From Candidatus Kapaibacterium sp. (lineage in GTDB: Bacteria; Bacteroidota; Ignavibacteria; Kapaibacteriales; UBA4661), in contig JALONG010000017.1 in the NCBI GenBank assembly GCA_025455065.1, positions 4,294 through 68,293 on the forward strand: a DNA stretch of 64,000 nt, in the 5' to 3' direction. A program made the position numbers and the translations under genes. Positions within the stretch are counted from its first letter, which is position 1. Each line of letters opens with the position of its first letter. Under the pieces are notes generated by a model. That model searched no databases and had not been told where the DNA came from. It was given only the letters and a program-made list of their open reading frames with translations. Positions 11,415 through 63,584 of this stretch are shown here, piece by piece.

Positions 11415-11470
11415 GCTTTTGCGGAGTGTGATTTCGTGAGGGCTTCCAACCATAAAGTGTGCTTTAATTA

Positions 11471-11893: not shown

Positions 11894-11916
11894 TGTTTTT
11901 GATAAATGGTGAATGA

Positions 11917-12928: not shown

Positions 12929-13018
12929 GGTCCCCATAAAACGCGATGAACAAATACTGAAAAAATCTTATCGCAAGTCATACGCAATTATCGCTCCAAT
13001 GTTACAACAACCACAATG

Positions 13019-13056
13019 TAAAAAAAATGGCTTACAACCGATGATTGTAAGCCATT
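13019..13056 (-). terminator. intrinsic terminator downstream of the heme lipoprotein gene
   Basis: 11-bp stem ATGGCTTACAA / TTGTAAGCCAT followed on the minus strand by a run of 7 or more T. Confidence 0.75.
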
Positions 13057-13074
13057 TTTCAAATTCATAACACC

Positions 13075-13626
13075 TTACGGTACACTAACGTTCATAAGCG
13101 TACGGTCAATATGTCCGGCTATGCTATGGCAAGCGATACAGCCGTTTCCTTTGCTCGTGAGCGGATGCCGCTCTGCGCCTGTTGCCGAAACATAGCCCCA
13201 CACCCAACCGTCGGGGTCGGCATTAGGGTCTGCTTTGCGCTTAATGAGGAGCGCATATCCGTTCACGCTGCGGTCAGTATTGATGAGTTCTTTGGTGATA
13301 ATCGAACCTTCGGCAAAAACTGCACCAGCTTTCACTTTACCGGTTGCATCCAGCATCATTGCTGCTGTGGCGTTGTAACGTGTACGCAAAAACGGCTCAG
13401 AGTGTGCAGATTTCGCCGTTTTCCCAATAAAGGCATCTGATTTTTTATACCACGTATAACCGCTTGTTTGCTTGGCGGTCTCGAAAATTTGGGCAATCGT
13501 TACATTGCCGGATGTCGCAGTGATACCTGTGGTACCGGTGCTGTTATTAGGCATTTCACAGGACAACAATAATGTTATTGCGCTCAAAACACATACTCCA
13601 AGCGCTGTCTGAAAGAATGTTTTCAT
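13075..13626 (-). CDS. c-type heme lipoprotein, cytochrome P460-like
   Basis: Lipobox LLLSC and a single C-terminal CXXCH (GNGCIACHS). Size and heme-motif position fit the P460/c'-beta family; the family call is from memory. Confidence 0.5.
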   Translation of the reverse strand: MKTFFQTALGVCVLSAITLLLSCEMPNNSTGTTGITATSGNVTIAQIFETAKQTSGYTWYKKSDAFIGKTAKSAHSEPFLRTRYNATAAMMLDATGKVKAGAVFAEGSIITKELINTDRSVNGYALLIKRKADPNADPDGWVWGYVSATGAERHPLTSKGNGCIACHSIAGHIDRTLMNVSVP

Positions 13627-15514: not shown

Positions 15515-15612
15515 GTCATTGGTTAATTGGTCATTAGTCATTGGTTAATTGGTCATTGGTTCAACGCTGATAACGACTAATGCACTAATGACTAATGCAC
15601 CAATGACCAATC
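15515..15612. repeat. compound heptamer repeat / imperfect palindrome filling a convergent intergenic gap
   Basis: The left arm is built from GTCATTG / GTCATTA / GTTAATTG units. The right arm is built from the complementary ACTAATG / ACCAATG units. It includes a perfect 13-bp inverted repeat ATTGGTCATTGGT / ACCAATGACCAAT. Confidence 0.7.
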
Positions 15613-21900: not shown

Positions 21901-24600
21901 GGAACGGTCGGCAGCAATTTGGGAATATCCTTCATTAAATCGCCAGTAACCTATAAGATTGCTTCCATTGGGGTGGCTGGCATCCAACTCCCTTCTTCGC
22001 CACGAAGCAATAACAGACTGTGGCAAAGGTGTATTCCAAATTCGCACTTCATCAATATTTCCTTGCCAAAACTCCGTAATACCACCACGGGAGCCGATAT
22101 AGAATGGTTTTCCCCCGACCGGACTTAAAGAGATATTATCTGTTCCCATTAGCCGCCCATCAACGTAATACGTTATTACACCCGCATTGTAGGAAACTGC
22201 AATATGAGCATAATTGTAACGACGGAATGTTGGCATCACTGACCGTTGAACCGTTGTCGCACCGCTGTTGGTACTGACTTTAAGGAAGGCATTAAGTTGT
22301 CCAACATTCAATGAAAAATTTTGGCTTCCTGCATCACCAAACGAGAAAATACAAGGGTCATACCCAGGTGTGCCAACAAACCAATACGGTCGTACAAGCG
22401 CTTCCATTGTAAAACTTTGCAATGAGTCGTATGCAGCCCTCGGGGAGGCAACCACAGTTTGGTTTGAACCATTAAAGAGAAGTTGATAACCAAGAGCTGA
22501 TTTAACAGGAAGATTGGCTGCACCGACAGCAAAATATGCCTGTCCGAAAGGAACAACAGGTTGTACAAAATCGCTTACAAGCCCGTTTAATGTTTCGGTG
22601 CCTCCAATTCCATTATAGACAAACGGCGTATCAACACGGGCAACCATCGAAGGTTTTGTCCAGCCTCCGCTCCGAAACAGCCCTACTGATGCCAGGTTTA
22701 TCGTGCCGCCATTCACTTCTTCAATTTGCCAATTTTCCGTCGAGCTAATCGAACTAATTCTTGTGCCGGGTGCAGCACCACCTATCATTCCGTTATACGC
22801 TCCCACTTGAAGAATTGGCATCAATGAGACGTTAGTGGTGCCAAGTGCGAAGGGTAAAAATCGACCTGCTGTTCCCAAAGGGAAGAAGTAAGAATTTATG
22901 GAGTTTGCTATCGCACGGCGCATCTGCCCTTGGACGTAACCGAAGCCGGTAGTGGCGAATGTTACCGACAATGCAGAAGGATTACTGACAAATACCATTC
23001 CGTTTGCCATTTCACCGGAACGAACAATCCCGCTTGTTACAGCAAGTGAAGCGTTATTTCCCAAAGTTAAAATGTCACCCGCACTACCCGGAATTTGCAA
23101 TTCTGTACCGGAAGTTTTGTTGATATGCAGATTTGCATCAAGTGTTCCTGGTACTTGCATTTCAGCACTTCCGGGAAAACGATTCGTTCCTCCGGTGTAG
23201 AAGAGGTTTGACCCACCAGCATAAGTTATTGGTGTTCCTTCAACCGAGCCGTCGCCTTCCAAACGTAGCGTACCACGATTTTGAATAAATAATGTTCCTT
23301 CTTGCCCAAGTTTTGTGCCGTTATTGATTAAAAGAACACCGTTTGTTTGTACTACAAGAAATTGAAGAGGAGCGATATTCCCCCATCGGCTTATTTGTAA
23401 AAGGTTTGAACCTGTATTTAACGTTCCTGTATTGATAGATAGCGTACCAAAGATATTCGTTGGCGAACCAAGATTAACCGGAGTAACAGCCCCCATTTTG
23501 TTAATGCTTAGCGCACCAGGCATTGTTTGTGGCAATTCTAATGAATTTGTTGTTTTGGGATTTCCTAGGGTGTAACTCAAAGTTGCCGTTGTGCCGAGAT
23601 AGTTTACAGCATTCATGCCCCCAATCTGCCCTGTACCTGCTATTTCCAATCTACCGCCAATGGGGCTTAGACTCTCAATGTTGATGGTTCCATTGTTATT
23701 GAGCGTCCTCATATGGGCAATTTCGAGAACACCGTTGTCTTTTACAGCAAGTGTTGAAGAGGGTTGGATAATTCCTGTTGTTCCTGCCATGCCATTCATT
23801 ACCAAACGCCCTCCGGCATTAACATTCCAAGTTCCTTGTTGAAGGAGAAAACTGCCCTGCACATTTAATGTTCCCATGATACCATTCACAATTCCCCCGG
23901 GTTTATTAACCAGAATTGTTCCCGTCATGCTTCCGGCTGTTACTTCTCTGGCTGTTGCTGAAATCATGTAAGTATTCATGCCAACAAATTCTAGCGTATC
24001 GTTTGCCGATCCATAATTGATGTTGCTCGACCCAGCTATAGTTGGGTTGCCAGCAATAACAAATTTCCCTCCGCCACCGAAAATCTGCACAACGGAATTA
24101 TTGGTAAACGTTGCACCATCACGTACTGTCAAGACTGCTCCGGGAGCATTTGTTCGCAGAGTACCGCCCAAGGTTACAAGCCCCGTACCGCTCGGAGCTA
24201 TTATCAACGACATCCCCGTCCCTAAGGTTAAACGAGAAGGTGCTGTATTGACATTGAGAGAATTTATGGTTAGCGTTGCCGATTGCAATGTAACATCACG
24301 CATACCGGTTACAACCAAATTCACGATATTGGCTGGAATGCCGCTCGTGATGGTAACCGCTCCAGCCATACCACCATTATCAAATGTGACATTATCTCCC
24401 ATACCGGGTATGCCTGCTCCGCCTGCTCCACCTGAAGTAGCACTCCAATTTGCCGCATTATTCCAAACGTTTGAGCTATTTCCCGCTACCCAGAAAAAAG
24501 GCGCGGAAATGAGATTTGTTGCAAATAGCGCCAATACTACGCTACAACAAAAACTACGGAGCAGAGCCGCAATAGAAATTGAATAAACGCTTGTTTTCAT
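15931..24600 (-). CDS. giant (2889 aa) T9SS-secreted mosaic surface protein
   Basis: Domain order along the protein:
- signal peptide;
- Gly/Asn/Thr-rich beta-helix-like N-terminal third;
- LamG/ConA-like domain (about 22010-22495, ...IDEVRIWNTPL);
- seven IPT/TIG repeats (19251-20976);
- LRRNT-like cap plus about 20 plant-type LRRs (LDLSGNQLSGSVPSSIG; about 18060-19225);
- Ig I-set-like segment (DTGDYTCFVRN);
- FN3-like and ASH/Hydin-like Ig folds;
- C-terminal T9SS sorting domain (LSIFPNPSGEKLTV...GVYLVRLKN). Confidence 0.9.
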   Translation of the reverse strand: MKTSVYSISIAALLRSFCCSVVLALFATNLISAPFFWVAGNSSNVWNNAANWSATSGGAGGAGIPGMGDNVTFDNGGMAGAVTITSGIPANIVNLVVTGMRDVTLQSATLTINSLNVNTAPSRLTLGTGMSLIIAPSGTGLVTLGGTLRTNAPGAVLTVRDGATFTNNSVVQIFGGGGKFVIAGNPTIAGSSNINYGSANDTLEFVGMNTYMISATAREVTAGSMTGTILVNKPGGIVNGIMGTLNVQGSFLLQQGTWNVNAGGRLVMNGMAGTTGIIQPSSTLAVKDNGVLEIAHMRTLNNNGTINIESLSPIGGRLEIAGTGQIGGMNAVNYLGTTATLSYTLGNPKTTNSLELPQTMPGALSINKMGAVTPVNLGSPTNIFGTLSINTGTLNTGSNLLQISRWGNIAPLQFLVVQTNGVLLINNGTKLGQEGTLFIQNRGTLRLEGDGSVEGTPITYAGGSNLFYTGGTNRFPGSAEMQVPGTLDANLHINKTSGTELQIPGSAGDILTLGNNASLAVTSGIVRSGEMANGMVFVSNPSALSVTFATTGFGYVQGQMRRAIANSINSYFFPLGTAGRFLPFALGTTNVSLMPILQVGAYNGMIGGAAPGTRISSISSTENWQIEEVNGGTINLASVGLFRSGGWTKPSMVARVDTPFVYNGIGGTETLNGLVSDFVQPVVPFGQAYFAVGAANLPVKSALGYQLLFNGSNQTVVASPRAAYDSLQSFTMEALVRPYWFVGTPGYDPCIFSFGDAGSQNFSLNVGQLNAFLKVSTNSGATTVQRSVMPTFRRYNYAHIAVSYNAGVITYYVDGRLMGTDNISLSPVGGKPFYIGSRGGITEFWQGNIDEVRIWNTPLPQSVIASWRRRELDASHPNGSNLIGYWRFNEGYSQIAADRSTQENTASLINTPIWMDASTTSNVIVAPTVTSTGQLTATKIGTGSLTYSLIGANGGSTCATVNLGGSGSISYTPIGNIIPDVRDTVIHSVSDNIPSQTTASIVVEFSPVINVNTQFVSFNKPTRFTAPSFFGGTSPFIAQWSPTTNLTNTNTLQPTATLITNATYTLQFGDNYGFGSTFPVSAQIHPLVLAFSNSSSTATTGFPALVNSGNPVAMRYSVFRRRTGQFDSTDASVALRVDAAPGGNAQFAVNYTRTFTNTASILETGIVINWLNAPLAGGSTQAIVTLYRTSGAPIDPVQLQITISSNATAPIVTSFAPSIGGGGTFVTITGANFVNVGNVRFGGIPAQSFMVISPTEIRAQVAAGGGTGLVAVTAMAGSGNSAGVFQFVQPPTITSFTPQQGTSGATVQVLGSNFIAPVTVRFGGVPGTNVDIVSPTQLFVDVGPGATGNVNVTTPGGTVTSATIFTFFGAPIITSIVPTQGTAGDTITVNGNNFQLIDSVRIGGQVLTGANGTVLSSASQTQVRIVLSTTPLSGVVSIFAAAGQASSSQVFTYIPPPKIDSIVPRVGGAGTVVNVFGKNFIQVDSVRFGGVRLQSLMVTSTSALSAQMPTGLVNSTNAIIVFARAGRDTSKTPNLFQYVLPPQITSFTSAAGSGAWVQITGANLVSVSSVQFGGVPADSIRTMSPSLVLARVAAGASGKISLVAAGGSVQSQQDFRFLRPPTITAFTPSSGATGATVEITGTEFVNVTNVSIGGGSVASFSVANDTRIIATLSNNATSGTIRVSTLQGLAQSTQSFQVIISAGPPPSIISFTPPSGEAGTEVFISGQNLAAANNVTFAGVTAASFRVISATVVAAIVPTGATSGSIRITTPNGIATSVLDFRFILPNSGGENLTPLQRDSIVLVRLYNVTGGGAWAIERNWLTERPLSSWSGVRVEQGRVTSLELSNNALLGALPLFVAELSALKVLDLSGNQLSGSVPSSIGTMSALEVIRLRRNGFSGAFPQLATNANLQVFDIGQNRFVGDIPRGLCNAVNLREVRLDSNGFSGVLPPCLGNLQRVEIFDASQNLLADSIPAAIGSMTALRELLLAGNGLTGTIPQTLGTQATVRLLADNGKQATLQAVPNLQRLDLSRNRLTGLIPSSLGDCRALRTVQLSQNQLTGNLPLSFGNLTQLQTLDCSRNQLSGALPTFWGNLRQLQTLSLRNNRFSGAIPLEIGRLSALTTMWLDSNTFTSMSDSIQQISALQRISLANNRLTALPQLRRTSGIALDSVNVAGNALTFESLERNFSSVRAAVYSPQDSVLSRIDTTVRVFSRLRFSSTVGGLFNDYQWYRAGRVIVGATDSVLLVERFARADTGDYTCFVRNRVARELTLIRQNIRIRALPPQAPSERPLLLQPQALAQNVSIIPTFVWTTTAFTSLYEIEFSQQQDFASAATVRLTSNDPFRSRLTLVNTQALQFLTTYFWRVRAVSEGLPGAWSDVGRFTTLPEGQTLNVESLNFGRVLLQRSVERSVTIQNLSGTRIIIHSVRLSEPTTQTGGQFTVSGFTSAQTLEADSTISFRVRFVPRAVGEQVANVVVGYTIASAGAVPPTDVTFTNALTARGGVLGFVGEELDFGTVTAGLSKTESVQLTNIGTSALTLVPRVIARSENTEIATFGFNDVFTNAISLQAAQQAVFTLNCTVKPRSQRDSVRGSVQFVAQVGTFSDTLTIPTFVRVRPPDSNDIVLLPRISAEQQGVVPGGIVTILVKIAALDTKAILERSTQGTVQERSQFALGTLQRATPSSAAFTGDITMNRQVLIPANDETQLTQGAVTGDIASYTFTPTRWVPDMQGRLDSTLVRFRCRVVAGNTDTSALKITRFVWDTTRSQLSGGTVSQVIVRSDTLPQYFAAGVSKAGGKRLIGSPTMKALSIFPNPSGEKLTVRFTVPSAEYLTLELVTLQGTVLMRLAEGQYNEGTYTNDWSLQSLPSGVYLVRLKNSESVIQERLHVIR
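19251..20976 (-). repeat. seven tandem IPT/TIG-domain coding repeats (about 82 aa each) inside the giant gene
   Basis: The pattern P-x-I-T-S-F-x-P-x-x-G-x-x-G-x-x-V-x-I-x-G-x-N-F...V-x-F-G-G recurs seven times. Confidence 0.8.
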
Positions 24601-24918
24601 GGGAGTAAGAGGAAGATTGTTTTACATACCCTAATGATTTTCACCTGAATAGCGTGATAAACTCCGTACAGAATCGAATAAGAACGAGAATGAAATGAAT
24701 TTAACGATTTTCCGCACCATTCACAAGTTACCAGCAGTCATTTTCCGGTATGCCGAAAGGTTATATTCTCAGGCTTTGGCAAATCTCGTCACCTTTCGAG
24801 AAGAACAAGGAAAGAACAATCTTGTTACATTCTCCAGCAACAAAAAATTTCCATCGGGAAGAAACAAAACTTTCTCTAAATTTACGGTCGTTTCATTACT
24901 CACACTCAGCGCTATACC

Positions 24919-26061
24919 ATGCACCTTCATTCCAAACTTCCAACCGTCGGCACGACAATTTTCACATCAATGTCCCATTTGGCGAGTGAATACAATGCCA
25001 TCAATTTGGCACAGGGATTTCCCAATTTTGCTCCGCCACCCAAACTTCTCTTATCGGCAGCAAACGCCATGCAACGGGGATTAAATCAATACGCTCCCAT
25101 GGCAGGTTATGTGCCGCTTCGGGAGCGGATTGCCGAAAAAATCGAATACTGCTATGGAAGACGCATAAACCCAGATTCAGACATTACGGTTACACCGGGT
25201 GGCACGGCGGCTCTCTTTGCAGCCATGATGAGCGTCGTTCACAAAGGCGATGAAGTGATTGTGCCGGAGCCGTGTTATGATTCGTATTTGCCGACATTGG
25301 AACTCTGCGGAGCGCTCATTAAGCGAGTTCCGATGAAATTTCCCGACTACTCAATAGATTGGGACAGAGTTCAAACGCTGGTTTCACCAAAAACGCGGAT
25401 GATTATCATCAACACGCCGCATAATCCCACCGGAAGCATCCTCCGCAAAGCAGATATGGAGCGCCTCTCAGCCATTGTTCGTAATACCGACATCATGATT
25501 TTGAGTGATGAAGTCTATGAGCATATCACCTTCGACGGCGAGGCGCACCAAAGCGTTCTTCGCTACAATGACCTCGCGGAACGCAGTTTTGTCGTGTATT
25601 CCTTTGGAAAACCGTTTCACGTAACGGGCTGGAAAACAGGCTATTGCGTGGCTCCTGCCGAACTTATGCGGGAATTTCGGAAGGTCTATCAGTACATGAA
25701 TTTTGCTTCTTTCACTCCCGCACAAGTCGCATTTTCTGAACTGTTAAGCAATAAAGAGCAATACGAATCACTACCGGAATTTTATCGGCAAAAACGAGAC
25801 CTCTTTCAAGACTTGATGCGGTCTTCAAGGTTTGAATTTTTTCCTTCTCACGGCTCATATTTCCAACTTGCACGCTATTCGGACATTTCCACGCTTAATG
25901 ACGCAGAATTTGCTGTTTGGCTCACCACAACGCACGGTGTGGCTGTTATTCCCGTCTCGGCTTTTTACCGCGATTCCACCGATAATCACGTTGTTCGTTT
26001 TTGCTTCGCCAAGACCGACGAAACCTTGGAAAAAGCTGCTGAAGCACTTTGTAAAATATAA
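24919..26061 (+). CDS. class I/II PLP aminotransferase, YbdL/methionine-aminotransferase-like
   Basis: SKLPTVGTTIFTSMSHLASEYNAINLAQGFPNF N-terminus and the PLP-lysine block YSFGKPFHVTGWKTGY. Confidence 0.85.
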   Translation: MHLHSKLPTVGTTIFTSMSHLASEYNAINLAQGFPNFAPPPKLLLSAANAMQRGLNQYAPMAGYVPLRERIAEKIEYCYGRRINPDSDITVTPGGTAALFAAMMSVVHKGDEVIVPEPCYDSYLPTLELCGALIKRVPMKFPDYSIDWDRVQTLVSPKTRMIIINTPHNPTGSILRKADMERLSAIVRNTDIMILSDEVYEHITFDGEAHQSVLRYNDLAERSFVVYSFGKPFHVTGWKTGYCVAPAELMREFRKVYQYMNFASFTPAQVAFSELLSNKEQYESLPEFYRQKRDLFQDLMRSSRFEFFPSHGSYFQLARYSDISTLNDAEFAVWLTTTHGVAVIPVSAFYRDSTDNHVVRFCFAKTDETLEKAAEALCKI

Positions 26062-29782: not shown

Positions 29783-30059
29783 AACAATTCCCTTACAAAA
29801 CACGCTGCAATGCCAGTTGCAGCCAAAATAAAAAAGACGAGGAAGGAAACGAAGAAGGGATAAAGGATAGGGGAAAAGGAATAAGGGCTGAAAAGCGCTT
29901 CAATACTTGCCGCTACTGGTGTCAGCGCATATTGAGTCGCGTTCTCGCTCCTCGTTCAATTTCCACAAATCACGATATTTTGTGAGATTTCCTCATCGCA
30001 TCCGTTGGCGCGGATGGTCTTGCAGAAACAAAATGAATTAGCGTTTCTGAAGACGTGAT

Positions 30060-30250
30060 GAGCATTGTAGGCAGGTCTTCCGGCTTAGGAGTCGTCCTTC
30101 GTGTTTGCCTTCCCACAAGTATTTGTGCTGCTTGCAGTGGCATTGGGGTAAAACACGTTGTCGTCCCTTACGGCGGCGCAACCGCGTAGGAATGGAAAAA
30201 TGTAAACAACACTTTTCGCACCTAACTTCCCTATTCTCGCTTTTACGCAT
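30060..30250 (-). promoter_or_regulatory. cobalamin (B12) riboswitch aptamer
   Basis: The minus strand reads AATAGGGAAGTTAGGTGCGAAA ... GCGCCGCCGTAAGGGA ... TGCCACTGC ... GTGGGAAGGC ... B12 box AGCCGGAAGACCTGCC (30085-30070). Every conserved block of the RF00174-type consensus is present in the right order; compare E. coli btuB AATAGGGAATCCAGTGCGAA...GCGGTAAGG...CACTGCC...GGGAAG...AAGCCCGAAGACCTGCC. Confidence 0.85.
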
Positions 30251-30365
30251 CCTTTCAAACAGGCGTTTGAACGCTTGATGCAAAAGCGCACCGTACAATG
30301 TTCAAAGAACAGACTGCCAAGTTACAACGAATTTTCGGTTTGGCGCAAATCTTTTCTTGCACTTT

Positions 30366-41538: not shown

Positions 41539-41872
41539 TTTGCCGTGAGAAAAGTGTTTCGTGCAGAGATGTGTTGTTTATACACTCACGAAAATACAAG
41601 CCCTCACGCGCATCTCATAACTAAATTCAATGAGTGGTCGCAGGAATTGATGAACGGTTTTTGAGTGGAGTTTGGTGGTATGCAAAAGTTCATCATACAA
41701 CGTATCGTTCAATACAAAAGCCCTGCACACTTGATAAAAACTCGTGTACAGGGCTATTATTTTGTGGGGATATTCTTTACCTTCTTGAATTCAAGTGATA
41801 ATAATTCGGGAAAAATGGTAATTTACCTCTTTATCTATCGTATCGCCGCACGAAACATTGCTTTTTAACGCT

Positions 41873-43153
41873 ATGGAAGAACTATTCATCACCAAAATAG
41901 ACATCAAGAATGTTCGCCATTTGAAGGATATTACCATTCCGCTTTCCACCGAAACGCGGAAACACTTGATTTTGACAGGCAAGAATGGGAGCGGGAAAAC
42001 GTCGGTGTTGAATGCGTTGAACTTCCTACTTGATACAGGGGTTCGCTCTCAGCAGTTTAATCAATTGGATACTAAATTGAATAGCATCAAGAGCTATACC
42101 CACGCTATTGAGCAGTTTTCCTTAGAAATCGAACAAAACCCCGACAAAAAACAATCAATTTCAAATCGTGATAACGCCATTTATAGCCGCAAACAAGTTG
42201 AAAACAGTATTTTATGGTTTCATCAAATCCCTGTAGAATTTACCAACATAAACAAGATTGTATTGAGTTTTTTACATGGCGAGTTTATTATCGCCTCCTT
42301 TGCTGCAAAACGGAAGCCACAATTTGAAGCCTCAAACGGTGTCAATAAAGTGAATTTGCCCAATGTTTCAGGACTCCCGGAAGGTCTGAATAAACAACTA
42401 GTCAAGTATCTTGTGTATCTCCGTGCCGATGCCTCCTTCTTGCGCGATGAAGGTAAAGCTGAAGAAGCGCATCAAATCGAAGAATGGCTAGCTTCTTTTG
42501 AGCAATTACTCAAGAAAATTTTCAACGACGAAGGCTTAAAACTGGAATTTGACCGAAGCACGGCAAATTACACTTACAATATCCTCCAAACAGGGCGCGA
42601 AAAGGCAGATTTCAACACGCTTTCCGATGGATATTCTGCAATTCTGAGCATCGTTAGCGAACTTATTTTGCGGATGCAGCAAGCCCCCAAGCCTCTTCGT
42701 ACCTACGAAATGCAAGGAATTGTGCTGATTGACGAAATCGAAACGCATCTGCACTTAGAACTGCAAAAGCAGATATTTCCTTTCTTGACGACCGTTTTCC
42801 CAAAAATTCAGTTCATCGTTACGACACATTCGCCATTTGTGATTAGTTCGGTGGAAAATGCTGTGGTGTATGACCTCGAAACCCGCATCTGCACTGATGC
42901 GCTTTATGGTTCGTCTTACGAAGCGATTGCAGAGGCGTATTTCGATGTAAACAAGTATTCAAGTGAGATTCAAGAACGTTTGAAGGAATATGAAACTCTT
43001 GTTAAGAAAGACAGCAGAACACCTGCCGAAGCTGCACAGATGATAGCATTGGAGCAAGAATTTGAGTCTTTGCCCACATTCCGCTCTCCTGAATTATTCA
43101 GCACGCTCCGCAAACTTCGCAACCGTCCTGCCGCCAATGGTCAATCTCACTAA
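41873..43153 (+). CDS. ptuA: AAA15/21-type ABC-like ATPase, Septu PtuA-like
   Basis: Walker A GKNGSGKTS, signature-like LSDGYSAIL, Walker B VLIDEIETHLH and H-loop TTHSPFV. It overlaps the downstream HNH gene by 17 nt and is AT-richer than its neighbours. Confidence 0.6.
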   Translation: MEELFITKIDIKNVRHLKDITIPLSTETRKHLILTGKNGSGKTSVLNALNFLLDTGVRSQQFNQLDTKLNSIKSYTHAIEQFSLEIEQNPDKKQSISNRDNAIYSRKQVENSILWFHQIPVEFTNINKIVLSFLHGEFIIASFAAKRKPQFEASNGVNKVNLPNVSGLPEGLNKQLVKYLVYLRADASFLRDEGKAEEAHQIEEWLASFEQLLKKIFNDEGLKLEFDRSTANYTYNILQTGREKADFNTLSDGYSAILSIVSELILRMQQAPKPLRTYEMQGIVLIDEIETHLHLELQKQIFPFLTTVFPKIQFIVTTHSPFVISSVENAVVYDLETRICTDALYGSSYEAIAEAYFDVNKYSSEIQERLKEYETLVKKDSRTPAEAAQMIALEQEFESLPTFRSPELFSTLRKLRNRPAANGQSH

Positions 43154-43826
43154 ATCGCAACCCGCGCCGGATTGCTTGGTTGCGGAACAGGCAAAATCAA
43201 ACGGAAGCGTTCGGAACTGCCCCGAAGTGCGTGAACGCTTACGTGTGGACTTTTACGAAAAATGCTATCTCTGCGAACGACACGATATTCCCATGGAAAT
43301 TGAGCATTTTATCCCGCACAAAGGCGATAAAACCTTGGAGTTCGACTGGCTCAACCTTTTCCTTGCCTGCGGGCATTGCAACAGAGCCAAAGGAACGCAG
43401 CTTGACTTGCTCAACTGCACCAATCCTAGCGATGATGTTCTCCGCCAACTTGAATACCAATATTCTGCCGAGAATCTCTCGTCAAAAATCAGCATTGATG
43501 CGCTCAATGACGATGTTCGTGTGCGGAATACCGCACATTTGCTCACAACAATTTTTAACAGCACTTCGGGCGAAGGTAAGATGTACTCGCCCAAGTTGCG
43601 CTCTAAACTTGGAGAGGAAATCCAACGTCTCGAAACAACAATAGAATCTCTTCTCGCAAGGAAACAAGAGGGTTTCGAGACAAGTGATGATTACTTCGCC
43701 CTTCAACACCATTTATCAATTCAATCCCCTTTTTTCGCCTTTAAGTATTGGTTTCTTCGCCGCCACACCTTGTACAGCCTTGAGTTTCAAGACCTACTTG
43801 CTCAAGCACCACTGCCTGCTTTTTAA
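43137..43826 (+). CDS. ptuB: HNH endonuclease, Septu PtuB-like (TIGR02646-type)
   Basis: CYLCE...EIEHFIPHKGD...NLFLACGHCNRAKG is an HNH/beta-beta-alpha-Me motif. The ATG at 43137 lies inside the 3' end of the ATPase gene. Confidence 0.6.
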   Translation: MVNLTKSQPAPDCLVAEQAKSNGSVRNCPEVRERLRVDFYEKCYLCERHDIPMEIEHFIPHKGDKTLEFDWLNLFLACGHCNRAKGTQLDLLNCTNPSDDVLRQLEYQYSAENLSSKISIDALNDDVRVRNTAHLLTTIFNSTSGEGKMYSPKLRSKLGEEIQRLETTIESLLARKQEGFETSDDYFALQHHLSIQSPFFAFKYWFLRRHTLYSLEFQDLLAQAPLPAF

Positions 43827-45385: not shown

Positions 45386-45577
45386 ACATAGTCGTGAGAA
45401 TGTTGGCTAAATTTGGAAGTATCAAATTGCAATTTTCCCTTGAAATGACAATCAACCTTGAATTCAAGTTTAGGGCTATCGCATGAGAAAGGTAGCAAAA
45501 ACGGCAAAGAATACGGAAATTTGCCATTCTAACCAAGAGCTATATTGACCGTTTTTCTTACCTGTTTTTTGTGTGCA

Positions 45578-45688
45578 ATGACGATTGCCGAAGCCTTTGC
45601 ACCGCTCTAAGACCCGCTTCAAACAGGGAAAGTCGGGCATCACCTCATGGATATTCTCATGCTCACCCTCAGTAGGGCTATCGCATGA
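45578..45688 (+). pseudogene. ISAs1 / H-repeat family transposase N-terminal remnant
   Basis: Translation MTIAEAFAPL*DPLQTGKVGHHLMDILMLTLSRAIA* matches the family block ([25 protein letters not shown] in E. coli H-rpt proteins). There is an in-frame TAA at 45608 and the rest of the gene is missing. Confidence 0.45.
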
Positions 45689-46100
45689 ACATCCACAACC
45701 CGCATAAAACCTTGCGATTGCAACAAGGGGTTGCAACCTCTTGCTACACGGAATGAGTATTCAAGCCATTAAAAAAAATTCATGCGATTACCCTCGAAAG
45801 ATTCTCGGCTTCCGAACTCCAGCAGAGGTATTCTTTTCCAACACCTTACGACTTTCGCACTTGTAACTTGAATTCACGACTCTTTGCGTTGATAACCGGA
45901 CAACATGATGAAGCGAAAGTAAATAACTCAACACCTGTTGAACATTTATATATTCTGCTTTTTTCCACTGTGTATTTTGTTGTGAGTATGATATTTAGCT
46001 ATGTCTAGCCAGGACGCTTCAACAATGATCCTTTTGAAATGCTGATGAGAAAAATTTCGGGCTAATTGTTGAAAAAATTCTCCCTTGCACAAACACGTAA

Positions 46101-46427
46101 ACGCACCTTTTCACAAAAAAGCCCTAAAGCCAAGATTACATCTTGCCTTCAGGGTTTTTATTTTTTGAGGGCAGTTTGCGAAAAAATGCCGTCGAAGCAA
46201 GACGGAATCTGGATTTGAGGGTTGTCGAAGAATATTGCTCTTCAAGAACTACAAGCATACAACAACACTACTGCAAGGGTACGCTCCACGCACGCGACCA
46301 GATAGGCGTTCAACAAACATTTTCTCTTTTGACCAAATGAATATCAGAAAGGAGTGACAAGACAAAAACTACGACAACGACAATACGATAACTACGGCAA
46401 AACTTTCGTATATTTACGAGTTAGTGG
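46101..46427 (+). repeat. conserved leader module, long copy 1 (327 bp)
   Basis: Starts ACGCACCTTTTCACAAAAAAGCCC, then a 13-bp-stem hairpin, a T-run, GAGGGCAGTTTGCG ... TTTCGTATATTTACGAG. By eye it differs from 47579-47905 by about 20 substitutions and no indels. Confidence 0.85.
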
Positions 46428-46469
46428 CAAGTTTAACAGACATAGTAAACAGCAAAAGAACTTAAAAAA

Positions 46470-47426
46470 ATGAGACAAATGTTCCCTTTACTTTTTATAC
46501 TTCTTTTTTCGTGTCAAAATACACCAAAGAATAACAAAGTACTTGAAGCCGAAAAAATGAAAACTGACACTTCATACGTATGGACAAAACTATTGGATAG
46601 TGCCGAATGGAGAAAAAATTATAACTTCCAAATGTTCAGCCAAACAGATACAATTTGGACTTTTCACCCTGACGGAAATTGGTATTCAAAAGATGGTAAA
46701 GGTTGGATAAAATCAAACCTGCCCAACTCAATCTCTAACCTTGCATTCTTAGATTATGTACAATTTAAGGGAGCAGTTTATGGTCTTGGTTATTTCAAAG
46801 GGAATATTGAGCAGTTTGAGTTCAAGCCTGAGATTTACAAGACAACTGACTTTAACAAATGGGCAACTATTTCAAAAACAAGTAATCTACCAAAACGATT
46901 TTTCTATCACCCATTTGTTTTTGACAACAAAATTTGGATAATTGGTGGAGAAGACAAAAACACTAAGTTTTCAGACATTTGGAATTCATCAGATGGAATT
47001 GCTTGGACAAAACAAAAAGAAAACCTACCATTTGGCAAACGAAGTGGAAACCAGATAGTAACACTAAACAATAAGTTATACTCGCTTGACAATGATGTTT
47101 GGAGTTCAACGGACGGACTGAATTGGGAGAAAGTAACAGACGAGATAGTGAAGGGCGAGCAAATATTCGGTTATTCAGCACAAGTGTTTGACAACAAAAT
47201 TTGGTTACTTGGCTGTAACAGGAATGGACAGTTTTCAAGCCAAGTATTATTCAGTTCAGACGGAAAAAATTGGCATACACAAACAGCACCTTGGTTGCCT
47301 CGTGGTGGTATTGCAGCGACAGTACACAACAACAAGATTTATATGACAGGTGGTAAATATGGTGGAACACCTAATCATCCTGATTTCAGATACGACAATG
47401 ATGTATGGACACTTGAAAAAAAGTAA
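46470..47426 (+). CDS. Kelch-like beta-propeller lipoprotein (cassette cargo)
   Basis: Lipobox LLFSC. Repeated ...IW..GG... / SSDG.xW blades (SSDGIAW, STDGLNW, SSDGKNW). Markedly AT-rich. Confidence 0.65.
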   Translation: MRQMFPLLFILLFSCQNTPKNNKVLEAEKMKTDTSYVWTKLLDSAEWRKNYNFQMFSQTDTIWTFHPDGNWYSKDGKGWIKSNLPNSISNLAFLDYVQFKGAVYGLGYFKGNIEQFEFKPEIYKTTDFNKWATISKTSNLPKRFFYHPFVFDNKIWIIGGEDKNTKFSDIWNSSDGIAWTKQKENLPFGKRSGNQIVTLNNKLYSLDNDVWSSTDGLNWEKVTDEIVKGEQIFGYSAQVFDNKIWLLGCNRNGQFSSQVLFSSDGKNWHTQTAPWLPRGGIAATVHNNKIYMTGGKYGGTPNHPDFRYDNDVWTLEKK

Positions 47427-47466
47427 GAAATGAAAAGCCAGCCACTAATATCGTATTGGCAATAGT

Positions 47467-47578
47467 GGGGCTGACAGTTGTGAACTCAGCATTTGTACTT
47501 CTGTCGGGCATTTGTGCAAATGTTGGACTGACGTTTTTCAAATGCCCAACCATCGCCAAGCAGCAAACCGTTAGCCCC
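47467..47578 (+). other. attC-like imperfect palindrome (site A)
   Basis: Outer stem GGGGCTGAC / GTTAGCCCC (one G-T pair), inner perfect stem GGGCATTTG / CAAATGCCC, and an asymmetric internal loop. It ends in CCGTTAGCC directly before the leader module. Confidence 0.5.
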
Positions 47579-47905
47579 ACGCACCTTTTCACAAAAAAGC
47601 CCTGAAGCCAAGACTACATCTTGCCTTCAGGGTTTTTACTTTTTGAGGGCAGTTTGCGAAAAAACACCGTCGAAGCAAGATGGAATCTGGATTTGAGGGT
47701 TGTCGAAGTATATTGCTCTTCAAGAACTGCAAGCATACAACAACACTACGGCAAGGGTACGCTCTACGCAAGCGACCAGATAGGCGTTCCACAAACGTTT
47801 TCTCTTTTGACCAAATGAATAGCAGAAAGGAGCGACAAGACAAAAACTACGACAATGACAATATGACAACTACGACAAAACTTTCGTATATTTGCGAGTT
47901 GGCGG
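47579..47905 (+). repeat. conserved leader module, long copy 2 (327 bp)
   Basis: See copy 1. It contains TATATTTG (TAnnTTTG-type -7 box) about 90 nt upstream of the ImmA/IrrE-like gene. Confidence 0.85.
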
Positions 47906-47988
47906 TCATGCTAAAAAACCGACAGCTACCGACAAAACATTAGTATTTTGACAAAACCGACCTTAAAATTTATATTTTTGAAACCTAA

Positions 47989-49167
47989 ATGGCAGACAAA
48001 GCATTCATAACACCAAATGTTCTGAAATGGGCAAGAGAATCGGCAAGAATGACCGAAGAAACTGCTGCTGCCAAAGTTTCTGTGACGGTTGACAAACTTA
48101 AGGAATGGGAAGAAGGAACAAGTCAGCCAACAATCAGACAAGCACAAATCTTAGCTAAAGCATATAAAAGACCTTTTGCTTTGTTCTTTTTGCCAGAAGT
48201 TCCTCGAGACTTTCAGCCACTCCAAGACTTTAGAAAGTCTGGTTCAAAAACTCTGACAACATCTTCAATTTTTATCATCAGAGAAATCCAACAAAAACAA
48301 GCATGGATTAGTGATATATATTCAGAAAACCAAGAAGACAAATTAGCTTTTGTAGGTCGTTTTTCAATAAAAGACAATCCTCAAACCGTAGCAAAAGACA
48401 TTCTTGAAACATTAAAAATTAATCCTGCATCTTACAAGACAGACAACCCCATCAAAGAATGGATTGATGCAGCAGAAACAAATGGCATTTTCGTATCAAG
48501 AACAAGTTTCATTCATTCTCGTCTAAAGCTTGATTCCGAAGAGTTACAAGGCTTTGCTATTGCAGACCTTCACGCTCCTTTTGTGTTCGTTAATTCTGAA
48601 GACTGGAACGCACCACAACTTTTCACACTTGTCCATGAGCTAGCACCTATTTGGATAGCTGAAACAGGTATTTCAAATGAAGTTGAACCTGAAATAAAAC
48701 CTAAAGACAAGTTTCATCCGGTGGAATTATTCTGCAATGAAATTGCAGCAAATGCTTTAATGCCAAAAGAGATTGTTTTAAGTTTTGACACTGCATCTTT
48801 TCAAAATTCTAAAGATGTTTTTAAAGTTGCGAAGCAATTAGGAGTAAGCTCATTTGCTCTCTTGGTTCGAGCATTGAATCTTAATATTATTTCTGCTCCA
48901 GTTTATCAAAAACTTAAAAAGCAAGCTGACATCAATTATGCTGAGTATTTGAAAAAAGAAGCAGAAAAAAAAGCCAAACAAAAAGAAAAGGATAAACCAG
49001 GCGGACCGAATTACTTTTTACTGCAACTAAACAGAAACAGTAGACTTTTTACCCAAACGGTTTTAGATGCATTTCGTGGTGGCTTTATAGAGCCGACAAT
49101 GGCTAGTAATCTTTTAAATGTTCAAGTAAATAAATTTCCAAAACTCGAATCACAATTATTTAGATGA
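47989..49167 (+). CDS. XRE-HTH + ImmA/IrrE (COG2856) metallopeptidase-domain protein with degenerate active site
   Basis: N-terminal HTH (LKWARESARMTEETAAAKVSVTVDKLKEWEEG). In the peptidase core, the expected HEXXH reads HELAP (48634-48648; CCT where CAT is expected). The stop overlaps the next start (ATGA). Confidence 0.7.
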   Translation: MADKAFITPNVLKWARESARMTEETAAAKVSVTVDKLKEWEEGTSQPTIRQAQILAKAYKRPFALFFLPEVPRDFQPLQDFRKSGSKTLTTSSIFIIREIQQKQAWISDIYSENQEDKLAFVGRFSIKDNPQTVAKDILETLKINPASYKTDNPIKEWIDAAETNGIFVSRTSFIHSRLKLDSEELQGFAIADLHAPFVFVNSEDWNAPQLFTLVHELAPIWIAETGISNEVEPEIKPKDKFHPVELFCNEIAANALMPKEIVLSFDTASFQNSKDVFKVAKQLGVSSFALLVRALNLNIISAPVYQKLKKQADINYAEYLKKEAEKKAKQKEKDKPGGPNYFLLQLNRNSRLFTQTVLDAFRGGFIEPTMASNLLNVQVNKFPKLESQLFR

Positions 49168-49670
49168 TCACAAAGGCAAACAAATATTGTTTGGATGCCA
49201 ATGTGTTAATCCAGGCATGGCAAAAATACTACAACCCAAAATTTTGTCCTGATTATTGGAAAATCTTAACCGAACTCGGAAAAAACGGAAAGATTTTTAT
49301 TCCTGAATTGGTTTATGAAGAAATTGTTCGGACAGAAGACGACCTCTCAAAATAGTTAAAAGCGAGTAAAATCCCAATCAATAAAATTAGCGAACCTGTT
49401 ACTCTCTGCTTACAAAAAATATATGCAGCAGACCCAGCACACAAAAACTTGGTTGACAACACAAAAGCCCGTTCATTAGCTGACCCATGGGTGATTGCTC
49501 ACGCTTTACATGAAAATGCGACTGTTGTAACCAAAGAAGAAAAAGTAACAGCATTAAACTCAAACAAGATAAAAATACCCAACGTTTGCGACAACATGGG
49601 GATTAGATGGATTAACGACTTCCAATTCATTGACGAGTTAGACATTAAATTCCAATGTTCCTTGACCTAA
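49164..49670 (+). pseudogene. DUF4411 (PIN-like) protein gene interrupted by an in-frame TAG
   Basis: ORFs 49164..49355 and 49449..49670 are in the same frame. The single stop TAG at 49353-49355 lies in ...EDDLSK*LKASK..., where a Trp (TGG) is plausible. The C-terminal half has ADPWVIAHA...IKIPNVC, typical of DUF4411. Confidence 0.6.
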
Positions 49671-49696
49671 CCGATGACAGAAAAGAAGCACGAACC

Positions 49697-49824
49697 GCCA
49701 ACACGGGTTTTGCGTCAGGCGGGGCTACTTGCAAATTTGGAGCTTTGTGCTTCTATTCAAGTTCAGTGCTGGTTGACAGTTTTGTGATCCGAAATCCGCC
49801 CCCGCCAAACCCGAAAACGTTAGC
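49697..49824 (+). other. attC-like imperfect palindrome (site B)
   Basis: CGCCAAC-A-CGGGTTTTG...GGCGGGG on the left pairs with CCCCGCC-CAAACCCG-AAAAC-GTTAGCC on the right. It follows the DUF4411 stop by 27 nt and precedes leader copy 3. Confidence 0.5.
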
Positions 49825-49827
49825 CTC

Positions 49828-49953
49828 ACGCACCTTTGCACAAAAAAGCCCTGAAGCCAAGACTACACCTTGCCTTCAGGGTTTTTATTTTTTGAGGGCA
49901 GTTTGCGGAGAAATGCCGTTGAAGCAAGACAAAATCTGGCGTTGAGGTCGGTT
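49828..49953 (+). repeat. conserved leader module, truncated copy 3
   Basis: ACGCACCTTTGCACAAAAAAGCCCTGAAGCCAAGACTACACCTTGCCTTCAGGGTTTTTATTTTTTGAGGGCAGTTTGCGGAG... Similarity stops about 20 nt before the CPBP gene stop. Confidence 0.8.
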
Positions 49954-49974
49954 GAAGTGTTTTTTTATGGTGGC

Positions 49975-59705: not shown

Positions 59706-59844
59706 GACAAATGAGAAATTGGGGATAACAGCAAATGTCAGAAAACAAAGAATTGAGTTCTTAGGGTGTTTTGATGTGCTTGCCACGAACTCAGAGATTG
59801 ACGAAAGTTTTGTCGTGAGTTTCGGATTGTTAGTGTTTTTCGTT

Positions 59845-59916
59845 CTTGTTTCAAAAATCAAAAGCCCTGCATTACAAAATTCTAACTTGCCATACAGGGT
59901 TTTTTGTGCAAAGGTG
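59845..59916 (-). repeat. conserved hairpin module, short copy 6
   Basis: Minus strand CACCTTTGCACAAAAAACCCTGTATGGCAAG...TGTAATGCAGGGCTTTTGATTTTTGA, immediately after the sigma-factor stop. It probably acts as that gene's terminator. Confidence 0.7.
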
Positions 59917-61477: not shown

Positions 61478-61597
61478 ACATCTTCCTCAAGAATAGTGAA
61501 ACAGTGTGTTTATGCTATTTTGATTCAGAAAGTGAGCGTGTGTGACAAAACAATAAAAAAATTGTAACTGCTGCACAAAATAGGCAGGATATACGAA

Positions 61598-61721
61598 ATC
61601 CTCTCAAAACCGCACTACACCTTCGCTCCACGCCATTTTTCCGCAAACTGCCCTTGAAAATCGAAAACCCTGCACGCAAGATGTAATCTGGCATACAGGG
61701 CTTTTTTGTGCAAAGGTGCGT
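61598..61721 (-). repeat. conserved leader module, short copy 4
   Basis: Minus strand ACGCACCTTTGCACAAAAAAGCCCTGTATGCCAG-ATTACAT-CTTGCGTGCAGGGTTTTCGATTTTCAAGGGCAGTTTGCGG...TTTCGTATATCC. It is preceded by CGTTAGCC (61736-61729). Confidence 0.8.
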
Positions 61722-63150: not shown

Positions 63151-63350
63151 CAACGTCAAAAATGAAGGGATGCGGGGTGTAGTTATTTGATGAAGGATGC
63201 AATCTACGAAATTCGCCTCGAAGCGAAGAAAAAGAAACACCGTTACAAGCCCCAGCAAATACCCCACCTCACAAACACCTGCCACGAATACCGCACCAAT
63301 ACTGGCTCTGGGAGCGCAGTTAATTTTCCTTCAAAATTAAGATTGATATA

Positions 63351-63473
63351 CAGCCCTCAAGTCCAGATTCCACCTTCACTCCAAGCCATTTTCCCGAAAC
63401 TGCCCTCGAAATTGGAAAACCCTGCACGCAAGATATAATCTGGCATACAGGGCTTTTTTGTGCAAAGGTGCGT
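63351..63473 (-). repeat. conserved leader module, short copy 5
   Basis: Minus strand ACGCACCTTTGCACAAAAAAGCCCTGTATGCCAG-ATTATAT-CTTGCGTGCAGGGTTTTCC...GAGGGCAGTTTCGGG...GGAATCTGGACTTGAGGGCTG. Confidence 0.8.
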
Positions 63474-63479
63474 GGGGGA

Positions 63480-63574
63480 AGCTAACGGTTTCGGGCTTGG
63501 CGAAGATGGCGATTTTCACCACAAATGTGTCTGCGGAGAACGGAACCACCACTTTTGCCAAACCCGTGTTATAG
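63480..63574 (-). other. attC-like imperfect palindrome (site D)
   Basis: Minus strand CTATAAC-A-CGGGTTTGGC ... GCCAAGCCCG-AAACC-GTTAGCT. It starts 10 nt after the stop of ORF 63585..63995. Its arms are nearly identical to site B. Confidence 0.5.
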
Positions 63575-63584
63575 GCAGCTTTTT

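Follow-up and report, generated by a model that had tools for sequence, protein, structure and literature searches.

Two arrays of genes, one on each strand, are carried by the window (the whole 64-kb stretch of DNA that was analysed), and copies of a conserved leader lie among their genes. The long form of this leader, 327 nt, occurs at 46101-46427 and 47579-47905; the two copies align without gaps at 93.3% identity (22 substitutions), in agreement with the original prediction that they are nearly alike and free of indels. The genes behind them are unrelated, as had also been reported, with a Kelch lipoprotein following the first copy and an HTH-ImmA/IrrE protein and then a broken DUF4411 gene following the second. 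All four short copies were recovered where they had been described, at 49828-49953 (+), 61721-61598 (-), 63473-63351 (-) and 59916-59845 (-), and the last of these does keep the distal piece of the long form, at 59836-59779. No full leader copy beyond these six was found in the 64-kb window, where a weak M1-like hairpin lies at 41716..41769 (+), some 100 nt ahead of a Septu-like PtuA/PtuB pair, with the flanking modules absent.

The leader consists of two separable modules, joined in the long copies by a middle segment. M1 (about 130 nt) comprises an A6 run, a hairpin and a U-run, and M2 (about 45-85 nt) comprises GACAA repeats, a TATATTT(G/A) -7 box and, 4 nt further on, a GTTRGYGGY box. Depending on the copy, M1 stands alone, is accompanied by M2, or has its hairpin joined directly to M2.

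On the + strand, leader copy 1 (46101..46420; M1, middle and M2) forms the head of the array with no attC before it, and its left flank and first 65 nt are conserved in a related strain, L010. It is followed by the Kelch-lipoprotein cassette (46421..47570, +; gene 46470-47426), whose attC lies at 47436-47578 (R'' 47441-47449; R' GTTAGCCCC, 47570-47578). Leader copy 2 (47571..47898, +) is bounded by two crossover points and is composed of TTAGCCCC, M1 (47579-47711; hairpin 47600-47632), the middle segment and M2 (about 47823-47898; -7 box TATATTTG, 47887-47894). The ImmA/IrrE (RmrA-like) and split DUF4411 cassette comes next (47899..49819, +; genes 47989-49167, 49164-49355 and 49449-49670), with an attC at about 49690-49827 (R'' 49694-49702; R' GTTAGCCTC, 49819-49827). 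The array is closed by copy 3, TTAGCCTC plus M1 (49820..49960, +; hairpin 49849-49881), which faces the 3' end of a convergent Rce1-like gene, and homology with L010 resumes here at CG|TTAGCC. Copies had been predicted to start directly after a GTTAGCY box, which is so for copy 2 (GTTAGCC) but not for copy 1, which is preceded by ...CACGTAA; the 5' R' box is absent in three of five leaders (copy 1, L010_4354 and L013).

On the opposite strand, M1 copy 4 (61589..61721, -; hairpin 61668-61700) is preceded by a degenerate attC ending in GTTAGCCTC (61735-61727) and lies upstream of ABM and ECF-sigma genes. M1 copy 5 (63342..63473, -; hairpin 63420-63452), upstream of AraC(DUF6597) and glyoxalase genes, is preceded by an attC (63478..63579, -; R'' ..GCTGCCTATAAC; R' GTTAGCTTC, 63486-63478) homologous to the attC preceding L006_1259. 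In the compact leader copy 6 (59779..59916, -), the M1 hairpin is fused straight to a degraded M2 (TCAATCTC) and no gene lies downstream; in L013, this site carries the long leader in full. The source contig ends 589 nt beyond the window, within the - array.

The M1 hairpin

The hairpin of copy 1 (46122..46154, +), flanked by an A6 run upstream and a T-run downstream (46115-46166), has a predicted folding energy of -18.3 kcal/mol (z -3.45). Among the window copies, the RNA folds range from -18 to -24 kcal/mol with z from -3.5 to -5.5, and in five of six copies none of 200 shuffled sequences was as stable. The stem, predicted at 13 bp, has 13-14 pairs with one internal mismatch. The compensatory change described between copy groups was verified (AAG/CTT versus TAT/GTG, with pairing retained), and an alignment of 22 copies shows both-sided changes at two stem positions; covariation is a property of the lower stem and does not extend to the rest of the repeat. 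Nor is the repeat confined to this locus, as about 35 M1 copies were found in related metagenome contigs.

The A6 run, which reads as U6 on the opposite strand, is invariant, whereas a strong U-run is seen in copies 1-3 and a weaker one in others. A strand-specific RNA hairpin, in which G-U pairs would mark the sense strand, was considered and dropped when the mismatches of 35 hairpins proved unbiased (28 G-U versus 24 A-C). Together, the invariant A6 run and the balanced G-U and A-C counts are consistent with two-way use of the hairpin. In addition, whenever an M1 copy is terminal or solitary, a convergent gene points its 3' end towards it. In sequence and predicted fold, M1 has what is expected of an intrinsic terminator, namely a stable G+C-rich hairpin, a U-run and a position at the end of a transcription unit, and it resembles bidirectional intrinsic terminators in setting a G+C-rich stem between an A-run and a U-run, between transcription units and with compensatory changes. 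The predicted function of the M1 hairpin is most likely that of a two-way transcription terminator. Standing after the R' end of the preceding attC, it would shut off transcription from the upstream cassette, and in the reverse direction it would block convergent or antisense transcripts.

Plain terminators need no conservation of sequence outside the stem, whereas M1 is conserved as sequence in its loop, in the 3' side of the upper stem (ATCTTGC), in 14 nt upstream and in ~70 nt downstream. No structure, coding signal or promoter was found in the conserved ~70 nt after and 14 nt before the hairpin. Extra M1 helices (GAGGGCA/TGCCCTC, TGCCCTC/GAGGGCA and CCTTT/RAGGG) did not surpass shuffled or slid controls. 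A 10-codon ATG...TGA mini-ORF is intact in 13 of 22 copies and lacks a codon-phase signal, and an 87-aa ORF (47680-47943) is broken by stop codons in copy 1 and in L013. As a promoter within M1 or at its 3' edge, a good TAATTTTG is present in copy 5 only, and likeness to ECF-sigma and LytTR sites is weak and not conserved.

A strong hairpin with flanking runs, the adjacent conserved 70 nt and two occurrences of GAGGGCAGT with TGCCCTC between them, which make alternative pairings possible, could also belong to a structured RNA that acts as a cis-regulatory leader, or to a small RNA ending in the hairpin. Both roles had been proposed, and we consider them very improbable. The candidate helices H2, H3 and P0 covary no more than shuffled or slid controls, the covariation term for the long form is +0.5 (four sequences), no promoter was found upstream of M1, and the mismatches are not biased by strand. 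A search against Rfam 15 likewise gave no match at the gathering score or at E up to 5.

The original prediction also listed the ends of a non-autonomous mobile element, and a MITE or an IS or transposon end would agree with a repeat that is multi-copy, spread over several contigs and in some cases solitary between ordinary genes. By-eye alignments of 22-25 copies with their flanks revealed neither terminal inverted repeats nor target duplications. The 3' border is ragged, the forms are modular, copies are restricted to the borders of variable units, and M1 had no match among 72,556 plasmids and 50,697 phage records, all of which makes an origin as a mobile element hardly credible.

Cassette borders and the M2 module

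Complementarity between R'' and the box preceding the cassette is a mark of integron cassettes. Ends of attC sites were read after the Kelch cassette, after the ImmA cassette, before M1 copy 5, and in L010, L006, L007, Riemerella, Emticicia and Myroides, with attC calls made by manual criteria and homology. The sites span ~105-140 nt, and their ends (RYYYAAC-type R'', GTTRRRY-type R') agree with the consensus at 5-7 of 7 positions; two sites are non-canonical, with unequal spacers (1 versus 5 nt). In an array on a Riemerella plasmid, four junctions in a row show the R'' of an attC as the reverse complement of the R' box in the attC before it.

In the window, this rule sets the cassette starts at 46421 (Kelch) and 47899 (ImmA), directly after M2. 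The recombination box at the end of leader 1, GTTAGTGGC (46420..46428, +; crossover after G46420), pairs with the Kelch inverse core GCCACTAAT at 8/9 positions, and the box at the end of leader 2, GTTGGCGGT (47898..47906, +), is the exact reverse complement of the ImmA inverse core ACCGCCAAC (9/9). The Kelch inverse core had at first been read as GGGGCTGAC, until comparison with the Riemerella homologue shifted the assignment to GCCACTAAT. Matches of 8/9 to 10/11 were also found for the 234-aa gene of L007, the EcoRI R-M pair of L006 and the first cassette of pEMTOL03, a plasmid of Emticicia oligotrophica DSM 17448 with the M2 core at the head of an array, and the rule fails for the AbiP2 reverse transcriptase cassette of L010, for blaOXA on a Riemerella plasmid and for the - array. 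As the GTT boxes draw on a small vocabulary (GTTRGYGGY), single matches are less specific than their length implies; the M2-box/R'' matches of the cassettes' own pairs outdo all other 719 permutations (1/720).

The pairing of R'' with the GTT box that ends the leader therefore sets the start of the cassette behind the leader. The original prediction had placed the start of the protein-coding cassettes after GTTAGCY, upstream of the leader, so that the leader would be the 5' untranslated part of the cassette and travel with its gene (TTAGCC, leader, gene, attC). That M1 lies directly behind an attC R' box in 9-11 of 22-25 copies would fit such an arrangement, as would M1 copies 4 and 5 of the - array, which run into genes with no intervening M2 or GTT box, and a unit of hairpin, AraC and beta-lactamase/TPR genes that stays together in both L010 and an Ignavibacteria MAG (68% identity). 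Yet the inverse cores of the long copies match the box behind their own M2 and place the cassette starts (TTAGTGGC and TTGGCGGT) after the leader, genes preceded by this leader are unrelated, and so are those separated by a shared attC+M1 block. The cassettes of Riemerella, moreover, have a 5' UTR of 27 bp (PMC13148043). We therefore give a leader that travels with its gene little credence, while the - array genes without M2 mean that the slot between M2 and M1 described below leaves some copies uncovered.

M2 precedes five unrelated genes, which encode a Kelch protein, an ImmA protein, an AbiP2 reverse transcriptase, a 234-aa protein and an EcoRI restriction enzyme. In copy 1, its -7 box TATATTTA (46409..46416, +) lies 54 nt upstream of the Kelch start codon. 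The reading of TATATTTG as a TAnnTTTG -7 box is supported by its state across copies: where a gene comes next (five copies) it is always intact, and of the three gene-less copies two have it degraded. TAnnTTTG is 3.6-fold enriched upstream of core genes here, mostly 54-87 nt before the ATG; a -33 TTTG at the proper distance from the M2 -7 box was not found. The predicted promoter box TATATTTG probably starts transcription into the next cassette.

M2 ends in G|TT, and in five of six cases the next bases are those of the downstream cassette, which suggests that the G|TT of the box is the crossover at which the next cassette would have been inserted. With this crossover placed after the -7 box, M2 appears to be an attI-like half-site with a built-in putative promoter. 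Like the platform of an integron (attI and Pc), it is a non-hairpin site that ends in a GTT box, with a promoter box reading into the cassettes. Unlike attI, which is single-copy and adjacent to intI, M2 occurs twice in one array and eight times in the loci compared, in no case beside a recombinase, and whereas the integron Pc lies ~200 nt away inside intI, the putative promoter of M2 is 4 nt from the crossover. The cassettes resemble those of integrons in their imperfect-palindrome attC with RYYYAAC...GTTRRRY ends and in an R'' complementary to their own 5' end, and differ in the conserved terminator-like module after each cassette and in R boxes conserved over 9-12 nt.

The long leader could instead be an integron cassette devoid of genes but equipped with a terminator and a promoter, which has M2 as a short, atypical attC and moves by itself to land before various cassettes. 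Copy 2 and the L007_4026 leader do have G|TT crossovers on both sides, and within M2 a GAYAAC, separated by 33 nt from GTTRGY, changes together with it (TAAC/GTTA in two copies, CAAC/GTTG in two others). Gene-less cassettes with promoter activity are on record from Vibrionaceae superintegrons and oral Treponema (PMC6557892; bioRxiv 10.1101/2023.11.21.568050). They too are short non-coding units between two crossovers that provide a promoter for the downstream cassette. They end in a normal attC, whereas M2 makes an unconvincing hairpin: considered as a hairpin attC, it folds weakly (-5 to -9 kcal/mol as DNA, z 0 to -2.4). The leader differs from them further in adding a putative terminator and in lacking the 5' R' box in most copies. 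GAYAAC is not complementary to the leader 5' end TTAGCCCC, whereas protein-coding cassettes match over 8-10 nt; the R' box is missing in the three of five leaders named above; and the TAAC/CAAC change is one event between two sub-lineages. We regard a self-moving, gene-less cassette as unlikely.

The attC of each M2-headed cassette is followed by TTA(G/T/A)YCYC and M1. With M2 before it and TTAGCC-M1 after it, the cassette would lie between a promoter-bearing, attI-like half-site and a terminator, and the order of the slot would be promoter, insertion point, cassette with attC, TTAGCC, terminator. The reading that we favour, with a confidence only a little above an even chance, is that the leader is a unit between the cassettes of an integron-like array in a Bacteroidota-type (FCB-group) bacterium, with two separable modules that lie outside the protein-coding cassettes. 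The terminator-plus-promoter insulator for each cassette, one of the four roles in the original prediction, fits best among them, except that the leader is separate from the cassette and not part of it.

In the textbook integron, transcription of the promoterless cassettes starts from a single promoter at the array head, and most of them stay silent. The expression logic seems to be different here, as each cassette appears to be given its own promoter at the insertion point and its own terminator behind, and a promoter for each cassette would suit a phylum whose promoters and translation start signals are unlike those of Proteobacteria.

Strain variation and kinship with plasmid arrays

At fixed chromosomal sites, the arrays differ among strains, with breakpoints at the edges of shared repeat segments. 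Their cargo is typically cassette-like and includes an EcoRI R-M system, AbiP2, an RmrA-like protein, PIN/RelB, GNAT and glyoxalase genes. The position of the breakpoints, together with T-type hairpin arms that are almost randomly combined in the tabulated hairpins and an M1 3' half with neither structure nor coding signal, might indicate that the modules are functionless relics of an ancestral backbone, homogenised by gene conversion or homologous recombination, with the hairpin an ordinary terminator that hitch-hikes. Such an origin is improbable in our estimate. M1 retains ~80% identity over 125 nt between contigs despite flanking genes that are 58-78% identical, its conservation is blockwise rather than uniform, an intact -7 box tracks the presence of a downstream gene, and a Cytophagales plasmid shares the M2 core.

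Searches for the recombinase by tblastn (IntI1 and XerD queries) found no integrase or tyrosine recombinase in the window or in 27 loci (L001-L027), and Pfam scans of the neighbouring ORFs found no integrase. With no integrase found, the arrays class as CALIN-like attC clusters. Exact-protein look-ups of the window cassettes matched the source contig only. Orthologous loci reached through the Rce1-like neighbour yielded more M1 copies, and neither an empty M2|TTAGCC-M1 site nor a recombinase was found in them. Under the favoured reading, a recombinase unlinked to the arrays would use M2 as its target; as none was found near the arrays, the case for this target is made by the junction sequences.

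The rAID systems of gut Bacteroidales (recombinase-associated acquired interbacterial defence) are similar in being co-oriented arrays of accessory genes from the same superphylum, with conserved intergenic motifs and variation among strains (PMC12247911). The window arrays lack both features that define rAID, an adjacent tyrosine recombinase and orphan immunity genes. Their cargo consists of defence, regulatory and enzyme genes, and no recombinase was found with it.

A closer kinship was found in the attC sites, which share 73-90% identity with sites that accompany aph(3'), lnu(H), blaOXA and tet(X) on plasmids of Riemerella, Myroides, Empedobacter and Emticicia; for the Kelch attC, identity to the Riemerella, Emticicia and Empedobacter plasmid sites is 87-90%. 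In R. anatipestifer, the aph(3')-IVb unit has been shown experimentally to integrate site-specifically without homology (PMC13148043). Its 140-bp 3' region belongs to the same attC family, and on pRCAD0416RA-1, named as a carrier of aph(3')-IVb (PMC13148043), it is 90% identical to the Kelch site. The Riemerella aph(3')-IVb, lnu(H) and blaRATA units are likewise promoterless cassettes with a short 5' UTR, and no integron or integrase was recognised nearby (PMC13148043). Unlike the window arrays, the Riemerella plasmid arrays have plain attC-to-attC junctions without M1 or M2, and their cargo is antibiotic resistance, as opposed to defence or housekeeping-like genes. Through its attC sites, a chromosome from the environment is thus tied to the resistance-gene arrays that plasmids carry in pathogens of animals and humans, and the R''/R' pairing rule gives exact cassette borders.

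As a tentative proposal, possible though we would not count on it, Bacteroidota and their relatives may have their own phylum-wide cassette system, with attC sites related to those of integrons, a recombinase unlinked to the arrays (other than a canonical IntI, maybe Xer-like), and, in its chromosomal form, repeated landing pads in which a promoter fused to an attI-like core has a terminator on either side. The same system would also move tet(X), blaOXA, lnu(H) and aph(3')-IVb in Riemerella, Myroides and Empedobacter. If so, every captured cassette would be insulated and expressed on its own, not carried silently within an operon. M2 offers a candidate target sequence for such a system, and a candidate enzyme is provided by a Myroides plasmid, on which an Xer-like recombinase is found with an IS91 transposase at four array heads.

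Copies and genomic setting of the repeat

The 327-nt repeat is a genuine feature of this genome. The two long leader copies, 46101-46427 (copy 1, before a Kelch lipoprotein gene) and 47579-47905 (copy 2, before an ImmA/IrrE gene), aligned without gaps and with 22 differences in 327 positions, matching the approximately 20 substitutions and no indels of the original prediction. The four shorter copies listed there were all recovered by BLASTN and by an HMM built from the copies, as three M1 copies at 49828-49960 (+), 61721-61589 (-) and 63473-63342 (-) and a compact leader form at 59916-59779 (-). A weak hairpin-only match at 41716-41769 was the sole match outside 46-64 kb of the window. This M1-like hairpin lies upstream of a Septu-like defence pair (PtuA 41873-43153 and PtuB/HNH 43137-43826, PADLOC E 1e-113 and 2e-47), towards which the M20 peptidase gene is convergently oriented. 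A census and a comparison with Rfam had also been proposed; the HMM census yielded approximately 25 full and 10 partial copies across 12 contigs. The repeat consists of two modules, M1 (the first ~130 nt) and M2 (the last ~45-85 nt). It had no Rfam match, whether at gathering score or at E values up to 5.

The repeats delimit two inward-facing arrays, 46101-49960 (+) and 64000-59779 (-), separated by a 10-kb core segment, and the source contig (JGI Ga0392395_0000401, 68,910 nt) stops 589 nt beyond the window end. Array cargo includes EcoRI R-M, an AbiP2 reverse transcriptase, an ImmA/IrrE protein resembling RmrA next to a broken DUF4411 gene, PIN and RelB-like proteins, a PDC-S02 nuclease, GNAT, SDR, an ECF sigma factor, a glyoxalase with AraC, and beta-lactamase-family proteins, a gene content that is typical of cassettes. 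The DUF4411 gene, which follows the ImmA/IrrE gene (49164-49670), is called as two pieces of 63 and 73 aa and is probably a pseudogene.

In a close relative from metagenome VYMD01 (contig L010), the flanks of the + array are 97-98% identical, the genes between them differ, and the right breakpoint falls exactly between CG and TTAGCC. Another VYMD01 contig (L013) has no more than a solitary long leader at the locus of the - array. The only named relative with the repeat was the "Ignavibacteria bacterium" MAG JAAFIV01. No gene is called in the 715 nt (45386-46100) that separate the start of the M20 peptidase gene from leader copy 1, and L010 has a 130-nt insertion in this stretch. Two further VYMD01 contigs (L012, 2790-3066; L006, 1-278) share a terminal 278-nt segment that is 98.6% identical and contains a partial M1 hairpin; the repeats thus evidently break assemblies, and array lengths are underestimated. 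In L010 (1711-4343) and the Ignavibacteria MAG (L023, 6566-9147), an M1 hairpin is kept with AraC and beta-lactamase/TPR genes in a unit that has 68% nucleotide identity between the two and adjoins an Rce1-like gene in both, in opposite relative orientation.

Cassette borders

The original prediction treated the leader as the 5' part of each cassette, starting right after GTTAGCY. Copy 2 does begin after a GTTAGCC box, but copy 1 follows ...CACGTAA. When annotated plasmids were searched with copy 2 plus the sequence just upstream of it, only the upstream sequence matched: plasmids of Riemerella anatipestifer, Empedobacter and Emticicia carry intergenic sites, not annotated there, that have 87-90% identity to the site after the Kelch gene. 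The Riemerella plasmid has an attC-like site behind each of blaOXA, tet(X), estT, a phosphotransferase and aph(3'), and at each site the inverse core is an exact reverse-complement match to the preceding site's end box (GTTATGTGCC/GGCACATAAC, GTTAGCGGG/CCCGCTAAC, GTTACCTGC/GCAGGTAAC, GTTGGTGGC/GCCACCAAC), which is the signature of integron cassettes.

By this criterion the window shows two pairings, that of the Kelch attC inverse core GCCACTAAT with GTTAGTGGC at 46420 and that of the ImmA attC inverse core ACCGCCAAC with GTTGGCGGT at 47898, and both boxes are located at the leader 3' end, 4 nt past the -7 box. The same rule was true for a 234-aa gene (locus L007), the EcoRI pair of L006 and the first Emticicia cassette, and was broken by the reverse transcriptase cassette of L010; own-pair matching was better than all other 719 permutations. 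Each rule-obeying cassette had its attC followed by TTA(G/T/A)YCYC and M1. Because the inverse cores match the box at the leader 3' end, the leader would not be carried by the cassette and would instead be a unit between cassettes, the Kelch and ImmA cassettes starting after it. A cassette slot would then have M2 in front, as a promoter-bearing attI-like half-site, and M1 behind, as a terminator. This structural reading of modules, borders and slots is well supported; termination, initiation and use as a recombination target are functions that we infer.

The main rival explanation is that the leader is a gene-less promoter cassette; against this, M2 has a weak predicted fold and the 5' R' box is missing from most leaders. 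As units between cassettes, the leaders find their closest known system in the integron platform (attI and Pc), but differ from it in copy number, in the lack of an adjacent integrase, in the closeness of promoter and crossover, and in the presence of a terminator module. Conserved leader modules were not found described in the literature searched.

Features of the two modules

The M1 consensus is ACGCACCTTTGCAC-A6-G-[CCCTGnnnnnAAGAttacaTCTTGCnnnCAGGG]-CTTTTnnnTTTC-(G/A)AGGGCAGTTTGC...TGCCCTCGAAGCA...TTTGAGGGCAGTCGAAGTAT, with a hairpin whose predicted fold is stable. Pairing-preserving changes, claimed for the hairpin as such, held for two lower-stem positions that change on both sides (AU 8, UA 8, UG 4, CG 1; and CG 8, GC 4, UG 3, UA 2, GU 1) but not for the upper stem, which lacks compensation and keeps its 3' side, ATCTTGC, as sequence. 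G-U pairs (28) and A-C mismatches (24) were equally frequent, no helix other than the hairpin was supported, and no coding signal was found in M1. The A6 before the stem is invariant and the U-run after it variable. Terminal and solitary M1 copies faced the 3' end of a convergent gene in every case, and M1 is read as a putative terminator acting in both directions. The hairpin flanks are also conserved. The invariant 5' flank contains GCACAAA (46087, 49838, - strand), the complement of TTTGTGC, a heptamer of which the variable part of attCs (L024, L026, L010; window 47511, 49744) holds one to three copies, including those on the Riemerella plasmid and several others checked; it is also common genome-wide.

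The loci analysed contain eight occurrences of M2, and its core, ACGACAAAACTTTCGTATATTT(A/G)CGAGTTGGYGG, preceded by GACAA repeats, was also found once on Emticicia plasmid pEMTOL03. In keeping with the promoter-like box of the original prediction, TATATTT(G/A) is intact in all five copies before genes (Kelch, ImmA, AbiP2 reverse transcriptase, 234-aa protein, EcoRI R) and gone from two of the three without a downstream gene. Copies 4 and 5 of the - array (61721-61589 and 63473-63342) have M1 and no M2. TAnnTTTG is 3.6-fold enriched upstream of the core genes of the organism, a member of the FCB group that encodes a type-IX-secretion sorting domain.

Plasmid relatives and a candidate recombinase

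Plasmids of Riemerella, Empedobacter, Myroides, Chryseobacterium and Emticicia (L024, L025, L026, L028) have intergenic sites with 73-90% identity to the window attCs (47436-47578, 49690-49827). Most of these sites are unannotated, and they adjoin resistance genes, among them aph(3'), lnu(H), blaOXA, blaMYO-1, tet(X) and aadS. Site-specific, homology-free integration of the aph(3')-IVb unit, with a 27-bp 5' UTR and a 140-bp attC-like 3' region, was reported in R. anatipestifer in 2026, the mechanism being called unknown there (PMC13148043); the 3' site on the plasmid named as its carrier is a homologue of the window Kelch attC.

Published work describes complete integrons from Ignavibacteriae and Chlorobi (PMC9024848). 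Searches of the window and the related loci by tblastn, with IntI1 and XerD queries, and by Pfam scans turned up no tyrosine recombinase. Myroides odoratimimus plasmid p63039 (L028) carries four copies of a 300-aa Xer-like tyrosine recombinase paired with an IS91 transposase (11197-13175, 17256-19234, 20600-22578, 24047-25902). Two stretches of the recombinase match integron-integrase models, the IntI-specific insert is absent, and every pair adjoins a cassette array, three divergent from the array head and one beside catB on the same strand. It is a candidate for these arrays, a lead and not a link.

Elsewhere in the window, a cobalamin riboswitch at 30053-30304 (-) (RF00174, 74 bits) was the sole Rfam match at gathering score, and a 40-nt inverted repeat of ATTGGT(C/T)A-like units (15518-15611; 75% complementary, 14 nt apart) adjoins the start of a 2889-aa ORF.
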